From Escherichia phage ZCEC14, in sequence record OP168898.1: a DNA stretch of 64,000 nt; one strand, written 5' to 3'. Within the stretch, counting starts at the first letter, position 1. Each line of letters begins with the position of its first letter. Shown one piece after another: positions 2,916 to 61,163 of the stretch. The position numbers and the translations under genes were made by a program. The notes below the pieces were generated by a model. It was not told where the DNA came from. It did no database searches and was given only the letters and a program-made list of their open reading frames with translations.

Positions 2916-3209
2916 ATGGCCTTAAAAGCAACGGCACTATTTGCCATGCTAGGATTGTCATTTGTTTTATCTCCATCGATTGAAGCGAATGTCGATCCTC
3001 ATTTTGATAAATTTATGGAATCTGGTATTAGGCACGTTTATACACTTTTTGAAAATAAAAGCGTAGAATCGTCTGAACAATTCTATAGTTTTATGAGAAC
3101 GACCTATAAAAATGACCCGTGCTCTTCTGATTTTGAATGTATAGAGCGAGGCGCGGAGATGGCACAATCATACGCTAGAATTATGAACATTAAATTGGAG
3201 ACTGAATGA
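2916..3209 (+). CDS. rI: lysis-inhibition regulator RI (signal-anchor-release protein)
   Basis: 97 aa; N-terminal hydrophobic anchor MALKATALFAMLGLSFVL; matches T4 RI in length and sequence as recalled; SD aggagg. Confidence 0.8.
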   Translation: MALKATALFAMLGLSFVLSPSIEANVDPHFDKFMESGIRHVYTLFENKSVESSEQFYSFMRTTYKNDPCSSDFECIERGAEMAQSYARIMNIKLETE

Positions 3210-3592
3210 AATTCAGCGACTTTTCACAAAGTGGAAAACCTTCGAAGGCAGATGAATACTTAGGTTTATTAATGGCTGCACAAGCTTATTTTCATTCTGC
3301 GCATTTTGAAACTAAAAATTATGCTAGACACAAAGCATACGATTTTATTTTCTCCGAGTTGCCAGATTTGATTGATAAATTTGGTGAACAATATTTGGGG
3401 TATTCTGGTAGAAAATACACACCTTCAATTCCAGATGCCAGTAAACTTCCTACCGACACAATTAAAATGATTGATCGCATATTAGACCAATCTAACAGCA
3501 TTTATAAAGAAATGCCTCCAGCCATCCAAAGCACGATAGATGATATTACTGGAATGTTTTACCAGAGTAAGTATCTTCTTTCCCTCGAATAA
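3206..3592 (+). CDS. hypothetical protein (rI.1 position)
   Basis: 128-aa ORF; ATGA overlap with rI stop. Confidence 0.55.
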
Positions 3593-3596
3593 CATT

Positions 3597-3619
3597 AGTC
3601 TCCTTCGGGAGACTTTTTT
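3597..3619 (+). terminator. intrinsic terminator (UUCG-loop hairpin plus T-run)
   Basis: agtctcc-ttcg-ggagact followed by tttttt. Confidence 0.75.
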
Positions 3620-3629
3620 CATTTTACCG

Positions 3630-3659
3630 GTTTACTTTCCGTTTGAGCTGTGGTATTAT
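3630..3659 (+). promoter_or_regulatory. early sigma70-type promoter
   Basis: -35 GTTTAC 3630-3635, 18-bp spacer, TGgTATTAT -10 at 3654-3659. Confidence 0.7.
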
Positions 3660-3687
3660 ACAACTATCGGATAAAGAGGAGAACATC

Positions 3688-3876
3688 ATGAAAATTGAAG
3701 CACTCAATCAAGAAGGAAATATCTACGTCATCATTAATGGTGATTTTTTCGTCGACATGGATGAAGTTACTAGTGAAGAACTTGTAGAAGTTCTTAAGAA
3801 ACGCTATAGTATGTGTGATGAAGCTGCAACTCATATGGCGTGTGCAATATTCTCTCTTTCATATGTGGTGGAATAA
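3688..3876 (+). CDS. hypothetical protein
   Basis: 62 aa from ATG with SD aagaggag; track ORF 3643 start lies inside the promoter. Confidence 0.5.
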
Positions 3877-4079
3877 TGATTAGTATTGAACAAGCAGATA
3901 AAATTAAAGAATTGGTAGCTTTAATTCGCAAAGCAGATGAGGAACTTAGTGACTTTGCTTGGTTTTCGGCAGGCATTGCAAATAAAGGTATTGAAGAATT
4001 TGAAGCTAAAGTTGATAATGCTGTAGAAGCTTTAGATATGTTTCTTGATGAAATTATCGATCACAATACGAGAGTTTAA
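3876..4079 (+). CDS. small helical protein (xEQxxK family)
   Basis: 67 aa from in-frame ATG; [13 protein letters not shown] motif. Confidence 0.5.
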   Translation: MISIEQADKIKELVALIRKADEELSDFAWFSAGIANKGIEEFEAKVDNAVEALDMFLDEIIDHNTRV

Positions 4080-4081
4080 GT

Positions 4082-4276
4082 ATGCTGACACACGAACAGT
4101 TTGAAAAAATCATTAAATTAGCACGTGATGTTGAAATAGATTCATATCAATTAGCAGTTGAGCATTGTGAAGGATATTCATACGAAGGTATAGCAGCAGC
4201 TAAAAGAGATTTGGATAAATCTAAAGCTAAGTTAGTTCAATATCTTGAAATGATTAGGTGGAATAATGAAAACTGA
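4082..4276 (+). CDS. small helical protein (xEQxxK family)
   Basis: 64-aa ORF; MLTHEQFEKIIKL motif. Confidence 0.5.
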   Translation: MLTHEQFEKIIKLARDVEIDSYQLAVEHCEGYSYEGIAAAKRDLDKSKAKLVQYLEMIRWNNEN

Positions 4277-4439
4277 AAAGCAGATGTTTTTAATGAAGCT
4301 AATTGAAGAATATGCTAATGCAGTTTCTGACTATGAGTGTTCTTCTAGGGAAAGAGGCATAGCTTTTGCAAAGGAAGAAATGAAAATCATGGTTGATGCT
4401 CACACAAAACTCCAGAATTTTATTGAAAACGTCATTTAA
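4266..4439 (+). CDS. hypothetical small protein
   Basis: 57-aa ORF below track cutoff, overlaps upstream stop; codon walk ends at taa 4437-4439. Confidence 0.4.
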   Translation: MKTEKQMFLMKLIEEYANAVSDYECSSRERGIAFAKEEMKIMVDAHTKLQNFIENVI

Positions 4440-5058: not shown

Positions 5059-5589
5059 ATGAAACGATTAGTACTAGAAGTTAGTTCACTTTTTGGTGAA
5101 TTGGCTATAGAAAAAGTAAATAATATGTATCGTTTGACGCAAGAAGACGATATGCTATATTTTACGCCTAGCGAAATTATTCATTTAACCCAAATTGAAA
5201 AACCATACACTGATAAAATTGTAAGCATTAATGATGAGCATAAAATTCATTTTTATTCTTTATGCCCAGGATTTAATATTGAAAGCGAGTCAATATGCTT
5301 ATCAATTAATAATTGGGATAATTTTATAGCTAAGATTAAATATTTCTATTATTCTAATGAAAGAAAACATGGTTTAAAATGGTTTAAAAATTGCAATGCT
5401 ATTATTACTAACGCTTGTAATCAAAATTATGAAACTGTTTTAAATGTATCAAAATGCTATGAAGAGGGAGATGTCTTAACTATTCGTCAATCGGTAAATG
5501 ATGTTAATGTTGTTGTATTAAACAAAGAAGAAGCTGTTTTATTAAAGACTTATCTTGATTCTGTCATTCCAACTATGATTTCAAAGTGA
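5059..5589 (+). CDS. hypothetical protein (duplicated family, copy 1)
   Basis: 176 aa; shares GFNIE(S/D)E and C-terminal YL(D/T)xVxPxM motifs with next ORF. Confidence 0.55.
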   Translation: MKRLVLEVSSLFGELAIEKVNNMYRLTQEDDMLYFTPSEIIHLTQIEKPYTDKIVSINDEHKIHFYSLCPGFNIESESICLSINNWDNFIAKIKYFYYSNERKHGLKWFKNCNAIITNACNQNYETVLNVSKCYEEGDVLTIRQSVNDVNVVVLNKEEAVLLKTYLDSVIPTMISK

Positions 5590-5595
5590 GGAAAT

Positions 5596-6117
5596 ATGTT
5601 TATTTCAAGTGAAAGTGGTTTAATTCGTGTTGAATTTAAAAATGACATCTTCCTTATTCAAGGAGATGATAATATTAAAATGAGTTATGACGAAATTAAG
5701 AAAATTTGTCATGCTCTTGAAAGTCATGGAAAAGTAAATGCTACTATCGATATAGGCGATTTATGGGTGACACTTTATGAAGTATCCGAAGGATTTAACA
5801 TTGAAGATGAAAACAACATCTTAGCTATTGATAAAAGAAGTGATTTGTTTGATGTGTTAAAAGTTTATGAACAGTCAAACGGTGGAAGAAAAGCCGTATT
5901 AATTTATCAAAAACCGCATTCATGTGGAACTGCTTCAATCATTTCAAATATTGAAGATGAAACTGATACTTATATGTGTGTTTTGAAAGCTGGCCGTGAC
6001 CGTCATCCGGATTTTATTTCTATTCGTCAAAACAATGAAGAAATTTCATTATCAAAATCAGAAGCTGAAGCTATGATTAAGTATTTAACAACTGTTACAC
6101 CTTCAATGAAAGGATAA
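5596..6117 (+). CDS. hypothetical protein (duplicated family, copy 2)
   Basis: 173 aa; SD gtgagg; paralogue of 5059-5589. Confidence 0.55.
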   Translation: MFISSESGLIRVEFKNDIFLIQGDDNIKMSYDEIKKICHALESHGKVNATIDIGDLWVTLYEVSEGFNIEDENNILAIDKRSDLFDVLKVYEQSNGGRKAVLIYQKPHSCGTASIISNIEDETDTYMCVLKAGRDRHPDFISIRQNNEEISLSKSEAEAMIKYLTTVTPSMKG

Positions 6118-7593: not shown

Positions 7594-7616
7594 GGGAGCC
7601 TTCGGTCTCCCTTTTT
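7594..7616 (+). terminator. intrinsic terminator
   Basis: gggagcc-ttcg-gtctccc hairpin followed by tttttg. Confidence 0.7.
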
Positions 7617-7639
7617 GTTTAAAATGACGTCACAAAGTT

Positions 7640-7669
7640 GTTTACAAGCATAAAGCTTTATGGTACTAT
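7640..7669 (+). promoter_or_regulatory. early sigma70-type promoter
   Basis: -35 GTTTAC 7640-7645, 18-bp spacer, TGgTACTAT -10 at 7664-7669. Confidence 0.7.
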
Positions 7670-7704
7670 ACAACTATCAACTGATGTGGATTTGGGGGAA
7701 TAAA

Positions 7705-9558: not shown

Positions 9559-9588
9559 GTTTACAAGACTGTTCCTCTGTGGTACTAT
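9559..9588 (+). promoter_or_regulatory. early sigma70-type promoter with SD-complementary spacer
   Basis: -35 GTTTAC 9559-9564, -10 TACTAT 9583-9588; spacer ctgttcctc (9569-9577) complementary to gaggaacag (9605-9613) at the SD. Confidence 0.7.
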
Positions 9589-9616
9589 ACAACTATCAAC
9601 TACGGAGGAACAGAAA

Positions 9617-10144
9617 ATGAACGCTAAAGATATTTTCAACTTGGTAAATTACAACGATGGCAAATTTAAATCTGAAGCGCAAAGCAAGTTCTTTAACGAC
9701 ATCTCAATCGGAGGTGAAATCACTGTTGATGGAGGACAAATTTACAAATCCCGTTGGAATTGGATCGTTATTATTGATGAGATCGGTATTGTAGAAATTT
9801 ACAAGAATACGAATAAAAATCGTACATTACACTGGTCTCGTGATACTAACGAACAGTACAAAAAGGATAAAGCATCTAAAATGTCTCGTGTAACTCAAGA
9901 AGATATTGAGTTCATCAAGAAAGATATTTTAATGTATGATAACTTAATTGCTGAAGAGCAAGCTGTTATTGATAAATTTGACGAGATTAAAGCTTCTCGT
10001 GAAATTCCTGATTTTATGAAAGAATCAGTAAATGAACGATACTCTCTCATTTCAGAGCGTATTGAAACTTACAAAAAGCAAAGAGCTGAACGCCAAAATA
10101 CTCTTCGGAAGTTTGAAGAACGGTTAAAGACGGTACTCGCATAA
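9617..10144 (+). CDS. hypothetical protein
   Basis: 175-aa ORF directly downstream of promoter/leader cassette. Confidence 0.55.
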   Translation: MNAKDIFNLVNYNDGKFKSEAQSKFFNDISIGGEITVDGGQIYKSRWNWIVIIDEIGIVEIYKNTNKNRTLHWSRDTNEQYKKDKASKMSRVTQEDIEFIKKDILMYDNLIAEEQAVIDKFDEIKASREIPDFMKESVNERYSLISERIETYKKQRAERQNTLRKFEERLKTVLA

Positions 10145-23652: not shown

Positions 23653-24855
23653 ATGAAAGTATGTATTTTTATGGCTCGAGGTCTTGAAGGTTGCGGTGTA
23701 ACTAAATTTTCTCTTGAGCAACGTGATTGGTTTATTAAAAATGGTCATGAAGTAACTTTGGTTTATGCTAAAGATAAATCATTTACTCGTAATTGCGCAC
23801 ATGATTATAAGTCATTTTCAATTCCGGTTTTATTGGCAAAAGAATACGATAAAACACTTAAACTGGTAAATGATTGCGATATTTTAATTATCAATTCAGT
23901 TCCTGCTACTTCAGTAGAAGAAGACACCATTAATAACTATAAAAAAATTATTGATAACATTAAACCTTCGGTTCGTGTTGTAGTTTATCAGCATGACCAT
24001 TCTTCTCTTTCTTTGCGTCGAAATTTGGGATTAGAAGAAACTGTTCGTCGAGCTGATGTTATTTTTAGCCATTCTGATAATGGTGACTTTAATAAAGTTT
24101 TGATGAAAGAATGGTATCCGGAAACTGTTTCTCTGTTTGATGATATTGAAGAAGCACCGACCGTATATAACTTTCAGCCTCCTATGGATATTGCGAAGGT
24201 TCGATCAACCTACTGGAAAGATGTTTCTGAAATTAACATGAATATCAACCGTTGGATTGGTCGTACTACTACATGGAAAGGCTTTTATCAGATGTTTGAT
24301 TTTCATGAAAAACATCTTAAACCTGCAGGACTAAGTACTATTATGGAAGGTCTGGAACGTTCTCCAGCATTCATTCCTATTAAAGAAAAAGGAATTCCAT
24401 ACGAGTATTATCGTCTTCATCAAGTAGACCAAATTAAAATTGCTCCTAATTTGCCAACGCAAATTCTCGACCGTTATGTAAATAGCGAAATGCTTGAACG
24501 CATGAGTAAATCCGGATTTGGTTATCAGCTGAGTAAGTTGGACAAAAAATATCTACAGCGTTCTTTAGAATACACTCATCTCGAGCTTGGTGCATGTGGA
24601 ACAATTCCAGTATTTTGGAAATCTACTGGCGAAAATTTAAAATTCCGTGTTGATAATACTCCATTAATTTCACATGATAGCGGTATCGTTTGGTTTGATG
24701 AAAATGACATGGAATCAACATTTGAACGTATTAAAGAACTGTCATCTGACCGAGCTCTTTATGATCGCGAACGCGAAAAAGCTTATGAATTTTTGTATCA
24801 GCATCAAGATTCAAGCTTCTGCTTTAAAGAACAGTTTGACATTATTACAAAATAA
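23653..24855 (+). CDS. agt: DNA alpha-glucosyltransferase
   Basis: 400 aa; N-terminus MKVCIFMARGLEGCGVTKF; matches T4 a-gt and synteny between 55 and 47. Confidence 0.85.
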   Translation: MKVCIFMARGLEGCGVTKFSLEQRDWFIKNGHEVTLVYAKDKSFTRNCAHDYKSFSIPVLLAKEYDKTLKLVNDCDILIINSVPATSVEEDTINNYKKIIDNIKPSVRVVVYQHDHSSLSLRRNLGLEETVRRADVIFSHSDNGDFNKVLMKEWYPETVSLFDDIEEAPTVYNFQPPMDIAKVRSTYWKDVSEINMNINRWIGRTTTWKGFYQMFDFHEKHLKPAGLSTIMEGLERSPAFIPIKEKGIPYEYYRLHQVDQIKIAPNLPTQILDRYVNSEMLERMSKSGFGYQLSKLDKKYLQRSLEYTHLELGACGTIPVFWKSTGENLKFRVDNTPLISHDSGIVWFDENDMESTFERIKELSSDRALYDREREKAYEFLYQHQDSSFCFKEQFDIITK

Positions 24856-34317: not shown

Positions 34318-34400
34318 CATACAAGTAATATAAATCTATACTTAGGAAAAATAGATGATTCTAGGTCCTGTAAATTTATTAAAAATTTTTTCACAAAACT

Positions 34401-34430
34401 GTTTACATCCCTGTTCTTCCATGGTACTAT
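34401..34430 (+). promoter_or_regulatory. early sigma70-type promoter with SD-complementary spacer
   Basis: -35 GTTTAC 34401-34406, -10 TACTAT 34425-34430; spacer ctgttcttcc pairs with ggaggaacac (34446-34455). Confidence 0.7.
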
Positions 34431-34458
34431 ACAACTATCAACTACGGAGGAACACAAA

Positions 34459-34710
34459 ATGAAAAACATTCAAACTAATTTTATTCAAAATTTAAAAGTT
34501 GTTAATGCAGAAAAAGCTAATAAATTCTTTAAAGTTAAAGAATTCGAAAATGAAGGTAATACTTATGGTATTATAGAACAAAATGGAATGGTGACTGGAT
34601 TAGAAATTTATAATGGCAAAGGAAAATTTCAGTCACAGCCAATTTCTGTTATGGGTGTAAGAAAAGGAATTAAAACTGAAGATGCTTTAAAATTATTTGT
34701 TAAGTTTTAA
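34459..34710 (+). CDS. hypothetical protein
   Basis: 84 aa from ATG after promoter/leader cassette; track start 34276 is an alternative-codon extension across the terminator. Confidence 0.5.
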   Translation: MKNIQTNFIQNLKVVNAEKANKFFKVKEFENEGNTYGIIEQNGMVTGLEIYNGKGKFQSQPISVMGVRKGIKTEDALKLFVKF

Positions 34711-34722
34711 GAGGAAATTGTT

Positions 34723-35110: not shown

Positions 35111-35362
35111 ATGGAAACTTTAGTAGCGGGTTCAATTTTTATGGTTTTAGTTTCAGGCGTGTTGGCTATTATTATATACATGCTTCCGTGGTTCATCGCC
35201 TTGATGCGTGGGTCAAAATCGACAGTAGGAATCTTTTTCACGTCTTTACTGTTTAACTGGTCAATTATTGGTTGGTTTATTACATTTATTTGGTCAATTG
35301 CTGGTGAAACTAAAAAGTCTGCGCAGCCAAATCAGGTAATTATCATCAGAGAGAAGGAATGA
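35111..35362 (+). CDS. imm: superinfection immunity membrane protein
   Basis: 83 aa, two hydrophobic helices; position between 43 and 42 and length match T4 Imm. Confidence 0.75.
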   Translation: METLVAGSIFMVLVSGVLAIIIYMLPWFIALMRGSKSTVGIFFTSLLFNWSIIGWFITFIWSIAGETKKSAQPNQVIIIREKE

Positions 35363-35508
35363 AAAGCAAAATTATAGCAGCATTGCTTTTAATCTTGATG
35401 ATTATAATAAGTATATACTATAGTGTAACGGTTCCTCTTATGATTCCAACTATTATTTTAGGTTGGAGTTTATTACTGTTACAAGTTAAATATGAATGTA
35501 TCAATTGA
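35359..35508 (+). CDS. small membrane protein
   Basis: 49-aa hydrophobic ORF below track cutoff, ATGA overlap with imm stop. Confidence 0.4.
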   Translation: MKSKIIAALLLILMIIISIYYSVTVPLMIPTIILGWSLLLLQVKYECIN

Positions 35509-35515
35509 GGTTTAA

Positions 35516-36256
35516 ATGATTAGTGACTCTATGACAGTTGAAGAAATCCGTCTTCATTTGGGGCTTGCATTAAAAGAAAAAGATTTCGTAGTTGATAAAA
35601 CTGGTGTCAAAACTATTGAAATTATTGGCGCATCATTTGTAGCAGATGAACCGTTTATTTTTGGCGCTCTTAATGATGAATACATTCAGCGTGAACTTGA
35701 ATGGTATAAATCTAAAAGCTTGTTCGTTAAAGATATTCCGGGTGAAACACCGAAGATTTGGCAACAAGTAGCATCTTCTAAAGGTGAAATTAACTCGAAT
35801 TATGGTTGGGCTATCTGGTCAGAAGATAACTATGCCCAGTATGATATGTGTTTAGCTGAACTTGGTCAAAATCCTGATTCTCGGCGCGGTATCATGATTT
35901 ATACTCGTCCATCTATGCAGTTTGACTACAATAAAGATGGTATGTCAGATTTCATGTGTACTAATACAGTACAGTACTTGATTCGTGATAAGAAAGTCAA
36001 TGCAGTAGTAAGCATGCGCTCAAATGACGTGGTCTTCGGATTCCGTAATGATTATGCATGGCAAAAATACGTATTAGATAAATTAGTATCTGATTTGAAT
36101 GCAGGCGATTCAACTCGTCAGTATAAAGCAGGTTCTATTATATGGAATGTTGGAAGTCTTCATGTATATTCTCGTCATTTTTACTTGGTTGATCATTGGT
36201 GGAATACTGGCGAAACTCATATTGTGAAAAAAGACTATAAAGGTGAGTGGAAATGA
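35516..36256 (+). CDS. 42: dCMP hydroxymethylase gp42
   Basis: 246 aa; thymidylate-synthase-like fold; matches T4 gp42. Confidence 0.9.
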   Translation: MISDSMTVEEIRLHLGLALKEKDFVVDKTGVKTIEIIGASFVADEPFIFGALNDEYIQRELEWYKSKSLFVKDIPGETPKIWQQVASSKGEINSNYGWAIWSEDNYAQYDMCLAELGQNPDSRRGIMIYTRPSMQFDYNKDGMSDFMCTNTVQYLIRDKKVNAVVSMRSNDVVFGFRNDYAWQKYVLDKLVSDLNAGDSTRQYKAGSIIWNVGSLHVYSRHFYLVDHWWNTGETHIVKKDYKGEWK

Positions 36257-37095
36257 TTCAATTCGTAATTCCGAGCTATCAACGTGTAGGGGCAGTTTCT
36301 GCCCTTGATATGTTTCCGACTGATTATGAACCGCATATTGTAGTACGTGAACATGAAGAAAAAGCTTATTACGATGCCTATGGGTCTAGAGCTAAAATTA
36401 TAACTATTCCTGATGATGTAAATGGAATTGCTGGAACTCGTAAAGCAATTACTGATATGTATGCAGGTCAACGAATCTGGATGATTGACGATGATACTAC
36501 TATTCGTATGAGTTCAATGCGAAAAAGAGATGATCGTCGTTGCGTAGATAAAGTCAATCAATTGACTCGTGAACAGTTCTATGAATTGATTCAATATGTT
36601 GAGGATGCCATGGATTGCGGGTATTATCATGGCCATGCTCGTCTACCTATTTTTAAAATTACTTCATCTTGGGGTAATTATCGTGAAAATTCATATGGAT
36701 TCACGAATACATGGTATGACCTCGGAAAACTTACGACAGAACAAATTGGGTATGGAAAAATTGATTTATGTGAAGATATGTATGCATTTCTCAATTTAAT
36801 TAATCAAGGTTATCCGCATTTGGCCTTGTTCAAATATCTAGTTGTATCTGGAAAAGCACAAGCTCCTGGCGGATGCAGTTCAATTCGTAGTAATTCTAAA
36901 CATAATAGAGCGCTTGAGCAAATCAATAGAGAGTTTCCAGATCAAGCTCGTTGGAAAACTTCTAATATTGAAAAACGAAAATCGTTGGGTGAAGAAGATG
37001 AACCACTAAAGGTTCTTCGTATGTGTGTTTCGCGTAAAGAAAAATCAGAAGCATTTCATAAGTTTAATGCTATTCATCCAATAGCAGTTGATTAA
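36253..37095 (+). CDS. GT-A-fold glycosyltransferase at the beta-gt locus
   Basis: 280 aa from ATG (ATGA overlap with gene 42); IPSYQR N-terminus and DXD-type motif IWMIDDDTTI; not the T4 beta-gt sequence. Confidence 0.65.
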   Translation: MIQFVIPSYQRVGAVSALDMFPTDYEPHIVVREHEEKAYYDAYGSRAKIITIPDDVNGIAGTRKAITDMYAGQRIWMIDDDTTIRMSSMRKRDDRRCVDKVNQLTREQFYELIQYVEDAMDCGYYHGHARLPIFKITSSWGNYRENSYGFTNTWYDLGKLTTEQIGYGKIDLCEDMYAFLNLINQGYPHLALFKYLVVSGKAQAPGGCSSIRSNSKHNRALEQINREFPDQARWKTSNIEKRKSLGEEDEPLKVLRMCVSRKEKSEAFHKFNAIHPIAVD

Positions 37096-37172
37096 TGCCT
37101 AAATTTATTGTGTTATAATTACTCTATCTTTAACCAGTGAGGAAAATATAATGATGCCTATGGAAAAAATGA

Positions 37173-38354
37173 ATGTCTATTGCAGATTTAAAATCCCGTT
37201 TGATTAAAGCTTCCACTTCTAAAATGACTGCTGAACTGACTACATCTAAATTCTTTAATGAAAAGGATGTAATCCGTACAAAAATCCCAATGCTTAATAT
37301 CGCTATTTCTGGTGCGATTGATGGCGGTATGCAGTCTGGTTTAACTATTTTCGCAGGGCCTTCTAAACACTTTAAATCAAATATGTCTTTGACTATGGTT
37401 GCGGCGTATTTGAACAAATATCCTGACGCGGTTTGTCTATTCTATGATAGCGAATTTGGTATTACTCCTGCTTATTTGCGATCCATGGGAGTTGACCCGG
37501 AACGAGTAATTCATACACCAATTCAGTCAGTTGAACAGCTGAAAATTGATATGGTGAATCAGCTTGAAGCTATTGAGCGTGGTGAAAAAGTTATTGTATT
37601 CATCGACTCAATCGGTAATATGGCTTCTAAGAAAGAAACTGAAGATGCCTTGAATGAAAAATCTGTGGCAGATATGACTCGTGCTAAATCGCTGAAGTCA
37701 TTATTTCGTATTGTTACTCCTTATTTTAGTATTAAAAACATTCCGTGCGTTGCGGTTAACCATACAATTGAAACAATTGAAATGTTTAGTAAAACCGTGA
37801 TGACAGGTGGTACAGGCGTAATGTATTCGGCTGATACTGTATTCATTATCGGTAAGCGCCAGATTAAAGATGGTTCTGATCTTCAGGGGTATCAATTTGT
37901 TCTAAATGTAGAAAAATCTCGTACCGTTAAAGAAAAAAGTAAATTCTTTATTGATGTTAAATTTGACGGTGGTATCGATCCTTATTCTGGATTGTTAGAT
38001 ATGGCTCTAGAATTAGGATTTGTAGTAAAACCTAAGAATGGTTGGTATGCTCGTGAATTTCTTGACGAAGAAACCGGCGAGATGATTCGCGAAGAAAAAT
38101 CTTGGCGTGCAAAAGATACCAACTGCACTACATTCTGGGGTCCTTTATTTAAGCATCAACCATTCCGAGATGCTATTAAACGCGCTTATCAGTTAGGTGC
38201 TATTGATAGTAATGAAATTGTTGAAGCTGAAGTTGATGAATTGATTAACTCAAAGGTTGAAAAATTTAAATCTCCAGAAAGTAAAAGTAAATCAGCATCT
38301 GATTTAGAAACTGACCTCGAACAGTTAAGTGATATGGAAGAATTTAATGAATAA
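37173..38354 (+). CDS. uvsX: recombinase UvsX (RecA-like)
   Basis: 393 aa; Walker A GPSKHFKS; matches T4 UvsX. Confidence 0.9.
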   Translation: MSIADLKSRLIKASTSKMTAELTTSKFFNEKDVIRTKIPMLNIAISGAIDGGMQSGLTIFAGPSKHFKSNMSLTMVAAYLNKYPDAVCLFYDSEFGITPAYLRSMGVDPERVIHTPIQSVEQLKIDMVNQLEAIERGEKVIVFIDSIGNMASKKETEDALNEKSVADMTRAKSLKSLFRIVTPYFSIKNIPCVAVNHTIETIEMFSKTVMTGGTGVMYSADTVFIIGKRQIKDGSDLQGYQFVLNVEKSRTVKEKSKFFIDVKFDGGIDPYSGLLDMALELGFVVKPKNGWYAREFLDEETGEMIREEKSWRAKDTNCTTFWGPLFKHQPFRDAIKRAYQLGAIDSNEIVEAEVDELINSKVEKFKSPESKSKSASDLETDLEQLSDMEEFNE

Positions 38355-52729: not shown

Positions 52730-52759
52730 AGTTTAAAATTTTTTCATAAAACTATATAC

Positions 52760-52802
52760 ATCAGTAGTTGATTATGGTACTATATTAATATCAACTACTG
52801 AT
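52760..52802 (+). promoter_or_regulatory. 13-bp perfect inverted repeat enclosing an extended -10 (promoter-like stem-loop)
   Basis: atcagtagttgat (52760-52772) / atcaactactgat (52790-52802) around TGgTACTAT; followed by leader ttggagaataaaATG. Confidence 0.5.
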
Positions 52803-59928: not shown

Positions 59929-60486
59929 ATGCAGAAAACGAATCCGGGTTTGCAGAGACTATTTCAGATTCCGTCATTTACCCTATCGAATAGTGACTTG
60001 ACTAGTGAAATGAAGGTCAAAATTGCTGATACAGCGAGATACTCTTTAAAACAAAATCCAAATCAGGATAAGGCAGAAGTTATTGAAAGATGCCGTATAG
60101 CCGTGTACGCAGAGTTTTTTGTGGCAGATTGGCTAAGCGGATATGTCAATAAAGGCCAAGAAAATGTCGATGATCCGTACACATATGCATGGGATGTTTT
60201 GGCACATCCAAAATACTGTGGGCTTCGTGTAGAAGTTAAGACACATCAAACTGACTCACGTTGGATTTCGGTAACAACAGGATGCAGCGGAGAGTATCCA
60301 TATGGTTCTGGAATAAATCTAGGGCCCATTCTGAATCACCAAGTCGCTGACTGTATAATTATATTCAACACTAAAGAAATTCACCCAGGTGTCATCCAGT
60401 ACACTCCGAAGTTCATCGGTGACAGAGAAGACCTTCGCAAGGTTGTAAGAAAAAGCAACTACAATGGATGGTATCTTTCCATTTAA
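59929..60486 (+). CDS. denB: endonuclease IV (DenB)
   Basis: 185 aa; position after rIIB and sequence as recalled for T4 DenB. Confidence 0.8.
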   Translation: MQKTNPGLQRLFQIPSFTLSNSDLTSEMKVKIADTARYSLKQNPNQDKAEVIERCRIAVYAEFFVADWLSGYVNKGQENVDDPYTYAWDVLAHPKYCGLRVEVKTHQTDSRWISVTTGCSGEYPYGSGINLGPILNHQVADCIIIFNTKEIHPGVIQYTPKFIGDREDLRKVVRKSNYNGWYLSI

Positions 60487-60503
60487 AAAAATTTCACAAA
60501 ACA

Positions 60504-60533
60504 GTTTACATACCACAAGGACCGTGGTACTAT
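60504..60533 (+). promoter_or_regulatory. early sigma70-type promoter
   Basis: -35 GTTTAC 60504-60509, 18-bp spacer with ccac/gtgg repeat, TGgTACTAT -10 at 60528-60533. Confidence 0.7.
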
Positions 60534-60567
60534 ATAACTATCAACTGATACGGATTTGGAGAATAAA

Positions 60568-60774: not shown

Positions 60775-60991
60775 GTAAAATGAAAATCGTTGAGATTGAA
60801 CTATGAGTTCACTATGGTGGTGTTTTGTTTGGTTAATTAGTATTCCATTAATTTGTTTAACATTTACTTTTGTTATGAGGTTATTATGAAAATTTTTAAT
60901 TCTGTACTTATTGCTTGTGCGTGGTGGGTTGCACAAGTTTCGGCAGTGGTGATTGGTATTCACATTTATTACGAATATTTTTAAAAAAGTT

Positions 60992-61021
60992 GTTTACAAG
61001 ACTGTTCCTCTGTGGTATTAT
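60992..61021 (+). promoter_or_regulatory. early sigma70-type promoter with SD-complementary spacer
   Basis: -35 GTTTAC 60992-60997, -10 TATTAT 61016-61021; spacer ctgttcctc (61002-61010) complementary to gaggaacag (61038-61046). Confidence 0.7.
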
Positions 61022-61049
61022 TACCCTATCAACTACGGAGGAACAGAAA

Positions 61050-61163
61050 ATGAAAAAGATTATTAAAGCTATATGGAATGTAGTTATAATACTAGTAGTT
61101 TTGAGTATATTCCCAATCGTTTTAATGATTGATGTATTAAACGTTTACTTTGGATTTATGTGA
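61050..61163 (+). CDS. hydrophobic micro-protein (37 aa)
   Basis: ATG after promoter/leader cassette; single predicted TM helix. Confidence 0.35.
   Translation: MKKIIKAIWNVVIILVVLSIFPIVLMIDVLNVYFGFM

Follow-up and report, generated by a model that had tools for sequence, protein, structure and literature searches.

The 280-aa protein encoded at 36253..37095 in the genome of Escherichia phage ZCEC14 (OP168898.1) is an orthologue of the beta-glucosyl-HMC-alpha-glucosyltransferase of phages T2 and T6, the product of an already known gene that occurs in near-identical form in ~470 T4-like phages and has been named ba-gt, ggt, g-gt or TAGT. We consider it very probable that the enzyme acts after alpha-gt, as it does in T2 and T6, with a predicted T6-like, gentiobiosyl-hmC-containing DNA as the outcome; activity and product are taken from the literature on T2 and T6, and from these we infer the activity of the present allele and the ratio of the modified bases. 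In the window, that is, the whole 64-kb stretch analysed out of a roughly 166-kb genome, we established the gene, its identity, its fold (as an AlphaFold2 model), its synteny and the presence of alpha-gt, and the absence of beta-gt holds within the same window; a beta-gt or another modification gene may lie in the rest of the genome. The first-pass annotation, which had read this frame as a glycosyltransferase in the beta-gt position, was correct in its reasoning, but the gene has long been known and published work fully covers the finding. The T2 and T6 genes were reportedly cloned and sequenced in 1993, the original cloning paper being said to be that of Winkler and Rueger in Nucleic Acids Res. 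For a Tequatrovirus, the TAGT call is routine annotation and opens no new question.

Gene call, family assignment and surroundings

Reading of the DNA placed the coding sequence on the + strand at 36253..37095, with an ATG start at 36253, 280 codons and a stop codon at 37093-37095; the program-made ORF list gave the same frame as 36247..37095, opened by a GTG, with the ATG at 36253 lying two codons further in. The coordinates, length and neighbours given in the first pass for a 280-aa ORF between gene 42 and uvsX were borne out, and both motifs named there were located in the protein, IPSYQR at residues 6-11 and IWMIDDDTTI at residues 75-84. A chance ORF was ruled out by the 684 phage records containing a homologue with at least 80% coverage, which mark 36253..37095 as a real gene.

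Assignment to the family rested on the ORF itself, on Pfam and PHROG profiles and on the comparison with T2 and T6. The protein matched PF20691 (TET-associated glycosyltransferase, TAGT) at 38.9 bits against a gathering score of 27.5, over profile positions 2-205 of 205, and PHROG 842 (beta-glucosyl-HMC-alpha-glucosyltransferase) over the full length with an E value of 4.8e-89. The T2/T6 enzyme has been assigned to the same Pfam family (PMC13216743), and in the comparison with it proposed in the first pass, the window protein shared 277 of 280 residues with T2 and 276 of 280 with T6. The gene 42-uvsX position, the ATGA overlap and the alpha-gt partner are also the same in both of these phages. 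In tblastn, 688 phage records matched, 471 of them at ≥95% identity and many annotated as beta-glucosyl-HMC-alpha-glucosyltransferase, and a second group of homologues, ~65% identical, was found in Klebsiella, Enterobacter and Citrobacter phages. An exhaustive profile search yielded 2147 family representatives at E ≤0.001. NCBIfam had no model for the protein, and a PDB sequence search with it detected no solved relative.

Upstream lies gene 42 for dCMP hydroxymethylase (35516..36256, +), which belongs to the thymidylate synthase family (PF00303) and is 97% identical in nucleotide sequence to T4 gene 42; its stop codon overlaps the TAGT ATG in an ATGA at 36253-36256, just downstream of the Shine-Dalgarno-like GGTGAGTGG (site and start together, 36240..36256, +, from the sequence read). 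The overlap and the Shine-Dalgarno-like site suggest that the TAGT gene shares a transcript with gene 42 and that translation of the two is coupled; annotations of T2, fPS-65, Lutter and the Durham phages show the same arrangement. Downstream, uvsX (37173..38354, +) was recognized by the Pfam family T4_UVSX_C. A promoter-like element at 37088..37119 (+), with TATAAT at 37114-37119, overlaps the 3′ end of the TAGT coding sequence and probably serves uvsX; the homologous stretch is annotated 'promoter' in phage Lutter, and the sigma-70 scan had no entry for this element.

At the locus as a whole, one internal hairpin was the only element to rise above background in the scan for sigma-70 promoters and terminators. 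A GC-rich RNA hairpin (−17.4 kcal/mol, z −2.2) lies at 36281-36314, 28 nt inside the 5′ end of the TAGT ORF, with a GGGCAG/CTGCCC stem extended to 15 pairs. Phage fPS-65 has a terminator annotated at the homologous stretch, and the core stem is identical in Klebsiella phage Roth17, the TAGT protein of which is ~65% identical. An attenuator role between the two genes, gene 42 and TAGT, is one possible reading of the hairpin; the other is that it simply reflects conserved codons.

Several further features were observed in the window. A repeat family of the form GTTTACA-N17-TGGTACTATA...ACTATCAACT, with every copy on the + strand, resembles T4 early promoters and was found at 34374-34470 and at about 3651-3694, 7614-7682, 9559-9621, 52732-52801, 60481-60546 and 60964-61061. 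Three of the copies also have the ribosome-binding site and start in common (CTACGGAGGAACAGAAAATGAA), and are reminiscent of the mobile promoter cassettes known in T4-type phages. The copy at 34374-34470 lies where an insertion of 274 bp begins that T4 lacks (34449-34722, between gene 43 and imm.1); this insertion contains an 83-aa ORF (34459..34710) with no Pfam match and with the hypothetical protein T2_046 as its T2 homologue. A short ORF (35359-35508), encoding 49 strongly hydrophobic residues, lies between imm and gene 42, its start overlapping the imm stop codon. Its protein is identical in T4 (4228-4377 of the extracted T4 locus, minus strand); the T4, T2 and T6 records that we examined leave it unannotated, and those of the Durham phages label it 'Phage protein'.

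Fold and conserved residues

A word-indexed protein search found only 11 homologues, resulting in a shallow alignment (10 sequences) and a moderately confident AlphaFold2 model (pTM 0.72, mean pLDDT 69.8), which was good at residues 1-80 (pLDDT 84-95) and poor at residues 126-151 and 194-211. At that level of confidence, the GT-A-type features proposed from the sequence were recovered: the modelled protein adopts a GT-A fold, has an acidic motif of the DXD type following strand beta4, and lacks the two Rossmann domains of a GT-B fold. The published AlphaFold3 model of the T6 protein also has a GT-A fold and is grouped next to GT2 (PMC13216743). The motif consists of Asp79-Asp80-Asp81 (codons 36487..36495, +), placed by our model directly after beta4 (residues 74-77), and is presumed to be the metal and UDP-sugar binding site.

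Conservation was read from an alignment of 110 family representatives at 17-64% identity, in which only five columns, R11, D80, D175, G186 and G207, were invariant. All five are present in the window protein, which also has every residue conserved at ≥90% (I6, P7, R63, D79, D81, L180, G206 and R212). Arg11 (codon 36283..36285, +) belongs to the IPSYQR motif that follows strand beta1 and is replaced by His in T2. This replacement was seen in two independent T2 records (codons 3784-3786 and 784-786 of the extracted loci), and Arg11 was kept in RB18 and every other relative checked.

Predicted glucosylation of the phage DNA

In the proposed pathway, gene 42 would make hm-dCMP and replication would then incorporate hmC; the alpha-gt product would use UDP-glucose to attach an alpha-linked glucose to hmC, and TAGT would attach a second glucose, again from UDP-glucose, to the first by a beta-1,6 bond, so forming gentiobiosyl-hmC. 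As glucose is alpha-linked in the donor, UDP-glucose, and beta-linked in the product, the reaction would have to invert the configuration, as expected of a GT2-like GT-A enzyme; this argument rests on the established glycosyltransferase classification. The alpha-gt gene listed in the first pass at 23653..24855 (+) was confirmed by a full-length match to PF11440 (AGT, E 2.4e-236). The sequence of events follows that described in T2 and T6, where alpha-gt glucosylates hmC and a second enzyme then adds the beta-1,6 glucose (PMC13216743; PMC6024577), with a further source for activity and product in close relatives of these phages (PMC13390438). The genome of T6 delta g-gt has been described as ~75% alpha-glucosyl-hmC, and its DNA gave off glucose in the BapA assay (bioRxiv 10.64898/2026.02.25.707755). 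The presence of alpha-gt and the near identity to the T2/T6 enzymes thus support the earlier proposal of a second sugar placed on glucosyl-HMC as in those phages.

HPLC/MS nucleoside compositions have been published for ten Tequatroviruses encoding alpha-GT and TAGT: Solly, TB37 and five others contained ~1/3 5-hmdC, ~2/3 alpha-gentiobiosyl-hmdC and a trace of the alpha-glucosyl form, and Geo, EL and BGP contained hmdC, alpha-glucosyl and gentiobiosyl forms at ~1:2:2 (PMC13390438). Our comparison of alleles with measured phages covered Geo, EL, BGP, Solly and TB37, leaving out NR1 and QOTSP. The TAGT proteins of Solly and TB37, both from the Durham Collection Tequatroviruses (genes at 1238-2080 and 1299-2141 of their extracted loci, with the same layout as here), were identical to the window protein at 279 of 280 residues, D230E being the sole difference. 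Asp230 was unique to the window protein among the nine close relatives compared, at a position that is variable in the family. Geo, EL and BGP (genes at 23868-24710, 3119-3961 and 5199-6001 of their extracted loci) have a common allele with eight changes, I50V, M89I, R95K, C97R, V101I, A202S, Q203H and D230E. Since a single substitution separates the window protein from those of Solly and TB37 and the invariant residues are all kept, a T6-like pattern is predicted from the sequence for the window phage, in which ~2/3 would be gentiobiosyl-hmC and ~1/3 bare hmC, with alpha-glucosyl-hmC scarce and beta-glucosyl-hmC absent.

The main competing reading is that the same gene yields a T2-like pattern, mostly alpha-glucosyl-hmC with a few percent of the gentiobiosyl form, owing to low activity or low expression of the enzyme. 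The 2.9 kb around the TAGT gene are 98.0% identical to T2 DNA, and the T2 protein (LC348380, 280 aa) is three residues away (window to T2, R11H, D230E and P251S). Moreover, the ratios do differ among close relatives, from 1:2:2 in Geo, EL and BGP to about 5% gentiobiosyl-hmC in T2 (PMC13390438; PMC6024577). Against this, the window protein has Arg at the family-invariant position where T2 has His, and its allele is, save for D230E, the high-gentiobiosyl allele of Solly and TB37. A low-gentiobiosyl pattern is accordingly the less likely outcome, to which we would give a small though appreciable chance, and the T6-like pattern is preferred.

The T2/T6 difference in gentiobiosyl content has been known since 1960, the textbook value for T6 being about 72%. 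The replacement R11H may lie behind it (~5% in T2 against ~72% in T6). A more general proposal, that natural TAGT alleles rather than gene presence alone set the share of mono- and di-glucosylated hmC, is conceivable but leaves the odds against it: among five phages, the Geo/EL/BGP allele goes with 1:2:2 and the Solly/TB37 allele with ~2/3 gentiobiosyl-hmdC, a correlation in which other genes differ too. The ratio may depend as well on expression, on alpha-gt or on other genes. If the allele effect were causal, R11H would explain the T2/T6 difference, and the window phage would carry a full-activity allele.

The T6 protein (280 aa, lesions aside) differs from that of the window by Y40N, D55G, R106H and D230E. 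Both deposited T6 genomes are damaged in the TAGT gene, each differently. In MH550421 (4138-4980 of the extracted locus, minus strand), codon 10 is changed from CAG to an amber TAG, and the CDS is annotated as 261 aa from a downstream Met; in AP018814 (2135-2974 of the extracted locus, minus strand), an in-frame loss has shortened the DDD motif by one Asp, turning IDDDTT into IDDTT. These lesions suggest that some laboratory T6 stocks may not make the textbook amount of gentiobiosyl-hmC.

Two other readings were rejected. That the enzyme uses a different sugar, or acts on something else (for example bare hmC, beta-glucosyl-hmC or a target other than DNA), giving a modification unlike that of T2 and T6, draws on the size of the family and on its distant TAGT homologues, which occur beside beta-GT or without another GT and the acceptors of which are probably diverse (PMC13216743), donor and acceptor specificity not being revealed by sequence; it is highly improbable for a protein 98.6-98.9% identical to the T2/T6 enzymes of known product, and 99.6% identical to the enzymes of phages in which gentiobiosyl-hmC was measured, that is accompanied by alpha-gt, the maker of the known acceptor. 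A non-functional gene, leaving DNA with alpha-glucosyl-hmC and hmC only, has precedent in the damaged T6 records and is just as improbable here, where the ORF is intact and full length, the invariant and nearly invariant residues are kept, and so is the coupled start with gene 42.

Comparison with T4 and with cellular glycosyltransferases

The window shares 96-97% identity over 25 kb with Tequatroviruses such as UFV13, GEP001, ime09 and Shfl2, and the placement of the gene between gene 42 and uvsX matches the annotations of T2, T6, fPS-65, Lutter, Geo, EL, Solly and TB37. In T4, the annotated order is gene 42, beta-gt, segA, uvsX. Alignment of the T4 locus with the window by blastn showed 97% identity up to 36238, a break, and then 89% identity from 37185 inside uvsX, so that a 946-bp TAGT segment (36239..37184, +), unrelated in DNA sequence to T4, stands for the 1941 bp of beta-gt and segA. 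The unequal identity to T4 on the two sides of this swap suggests differing recombination histories. Neither T4 beta-gt nor segA had a homologue in the whole 64-kb window (best tblastn E values of 1.5 and 2.9), and no segA homing endonuclease gene lies between TAGT and uvsX (37096-38354), unlike in T4. The window protein showed no similarity to T4 beta-gt by BLASTP (best E 2.2) and gave only TAGT in Pfam, which ruled out a beta-gt homologue (PF09198) and agreed with the first-pass impression that the two do not resemble each other.

According to the literature, the T2/T6-type gene sits in the beta-gt position of T4, and T4 is atypical of its group: alpha-GT (or beta-GT) together with TAGT is the common combination, and the alpha plus beta pair of T4 occurs in 6 of 753 genomes only (PMC13216743). 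The pattern of sugars on hmC decides which host defences can act on a phage; with alpha-gt and a second transferase in place of the T4 pair, the sensitivities of the window phage become sensibly predictable. T4 beta-gt occupies the same slot after gene 42, acts with UDP-glucose on hmC DNA after replication, and complements alpha-gt. It has a GT-B fold, whereas the window protein is modelled as GT-A, like the T6 protein (PMC13216743), and the two share no sequence similarity. Their acceptors also differ: T4 beta-gt adds a first glucose to bare hmC, whereas the T2/T6-type enzyme adds a second glucose to alpha-glucosyl-hmC. Compared with cellular GT2-type GT-A enzymes (WrtF, 9omh; BcsA, 9fmv; K4CP, 2z86; TarP, 6h1j), the window protein has 7-16% sequence identity, and the acceptors are again distinct, as the cellular enzymes act on glycan, lipid or teichoic acid, whereas the acceptor of TAGT is a DNA-linked glucose.
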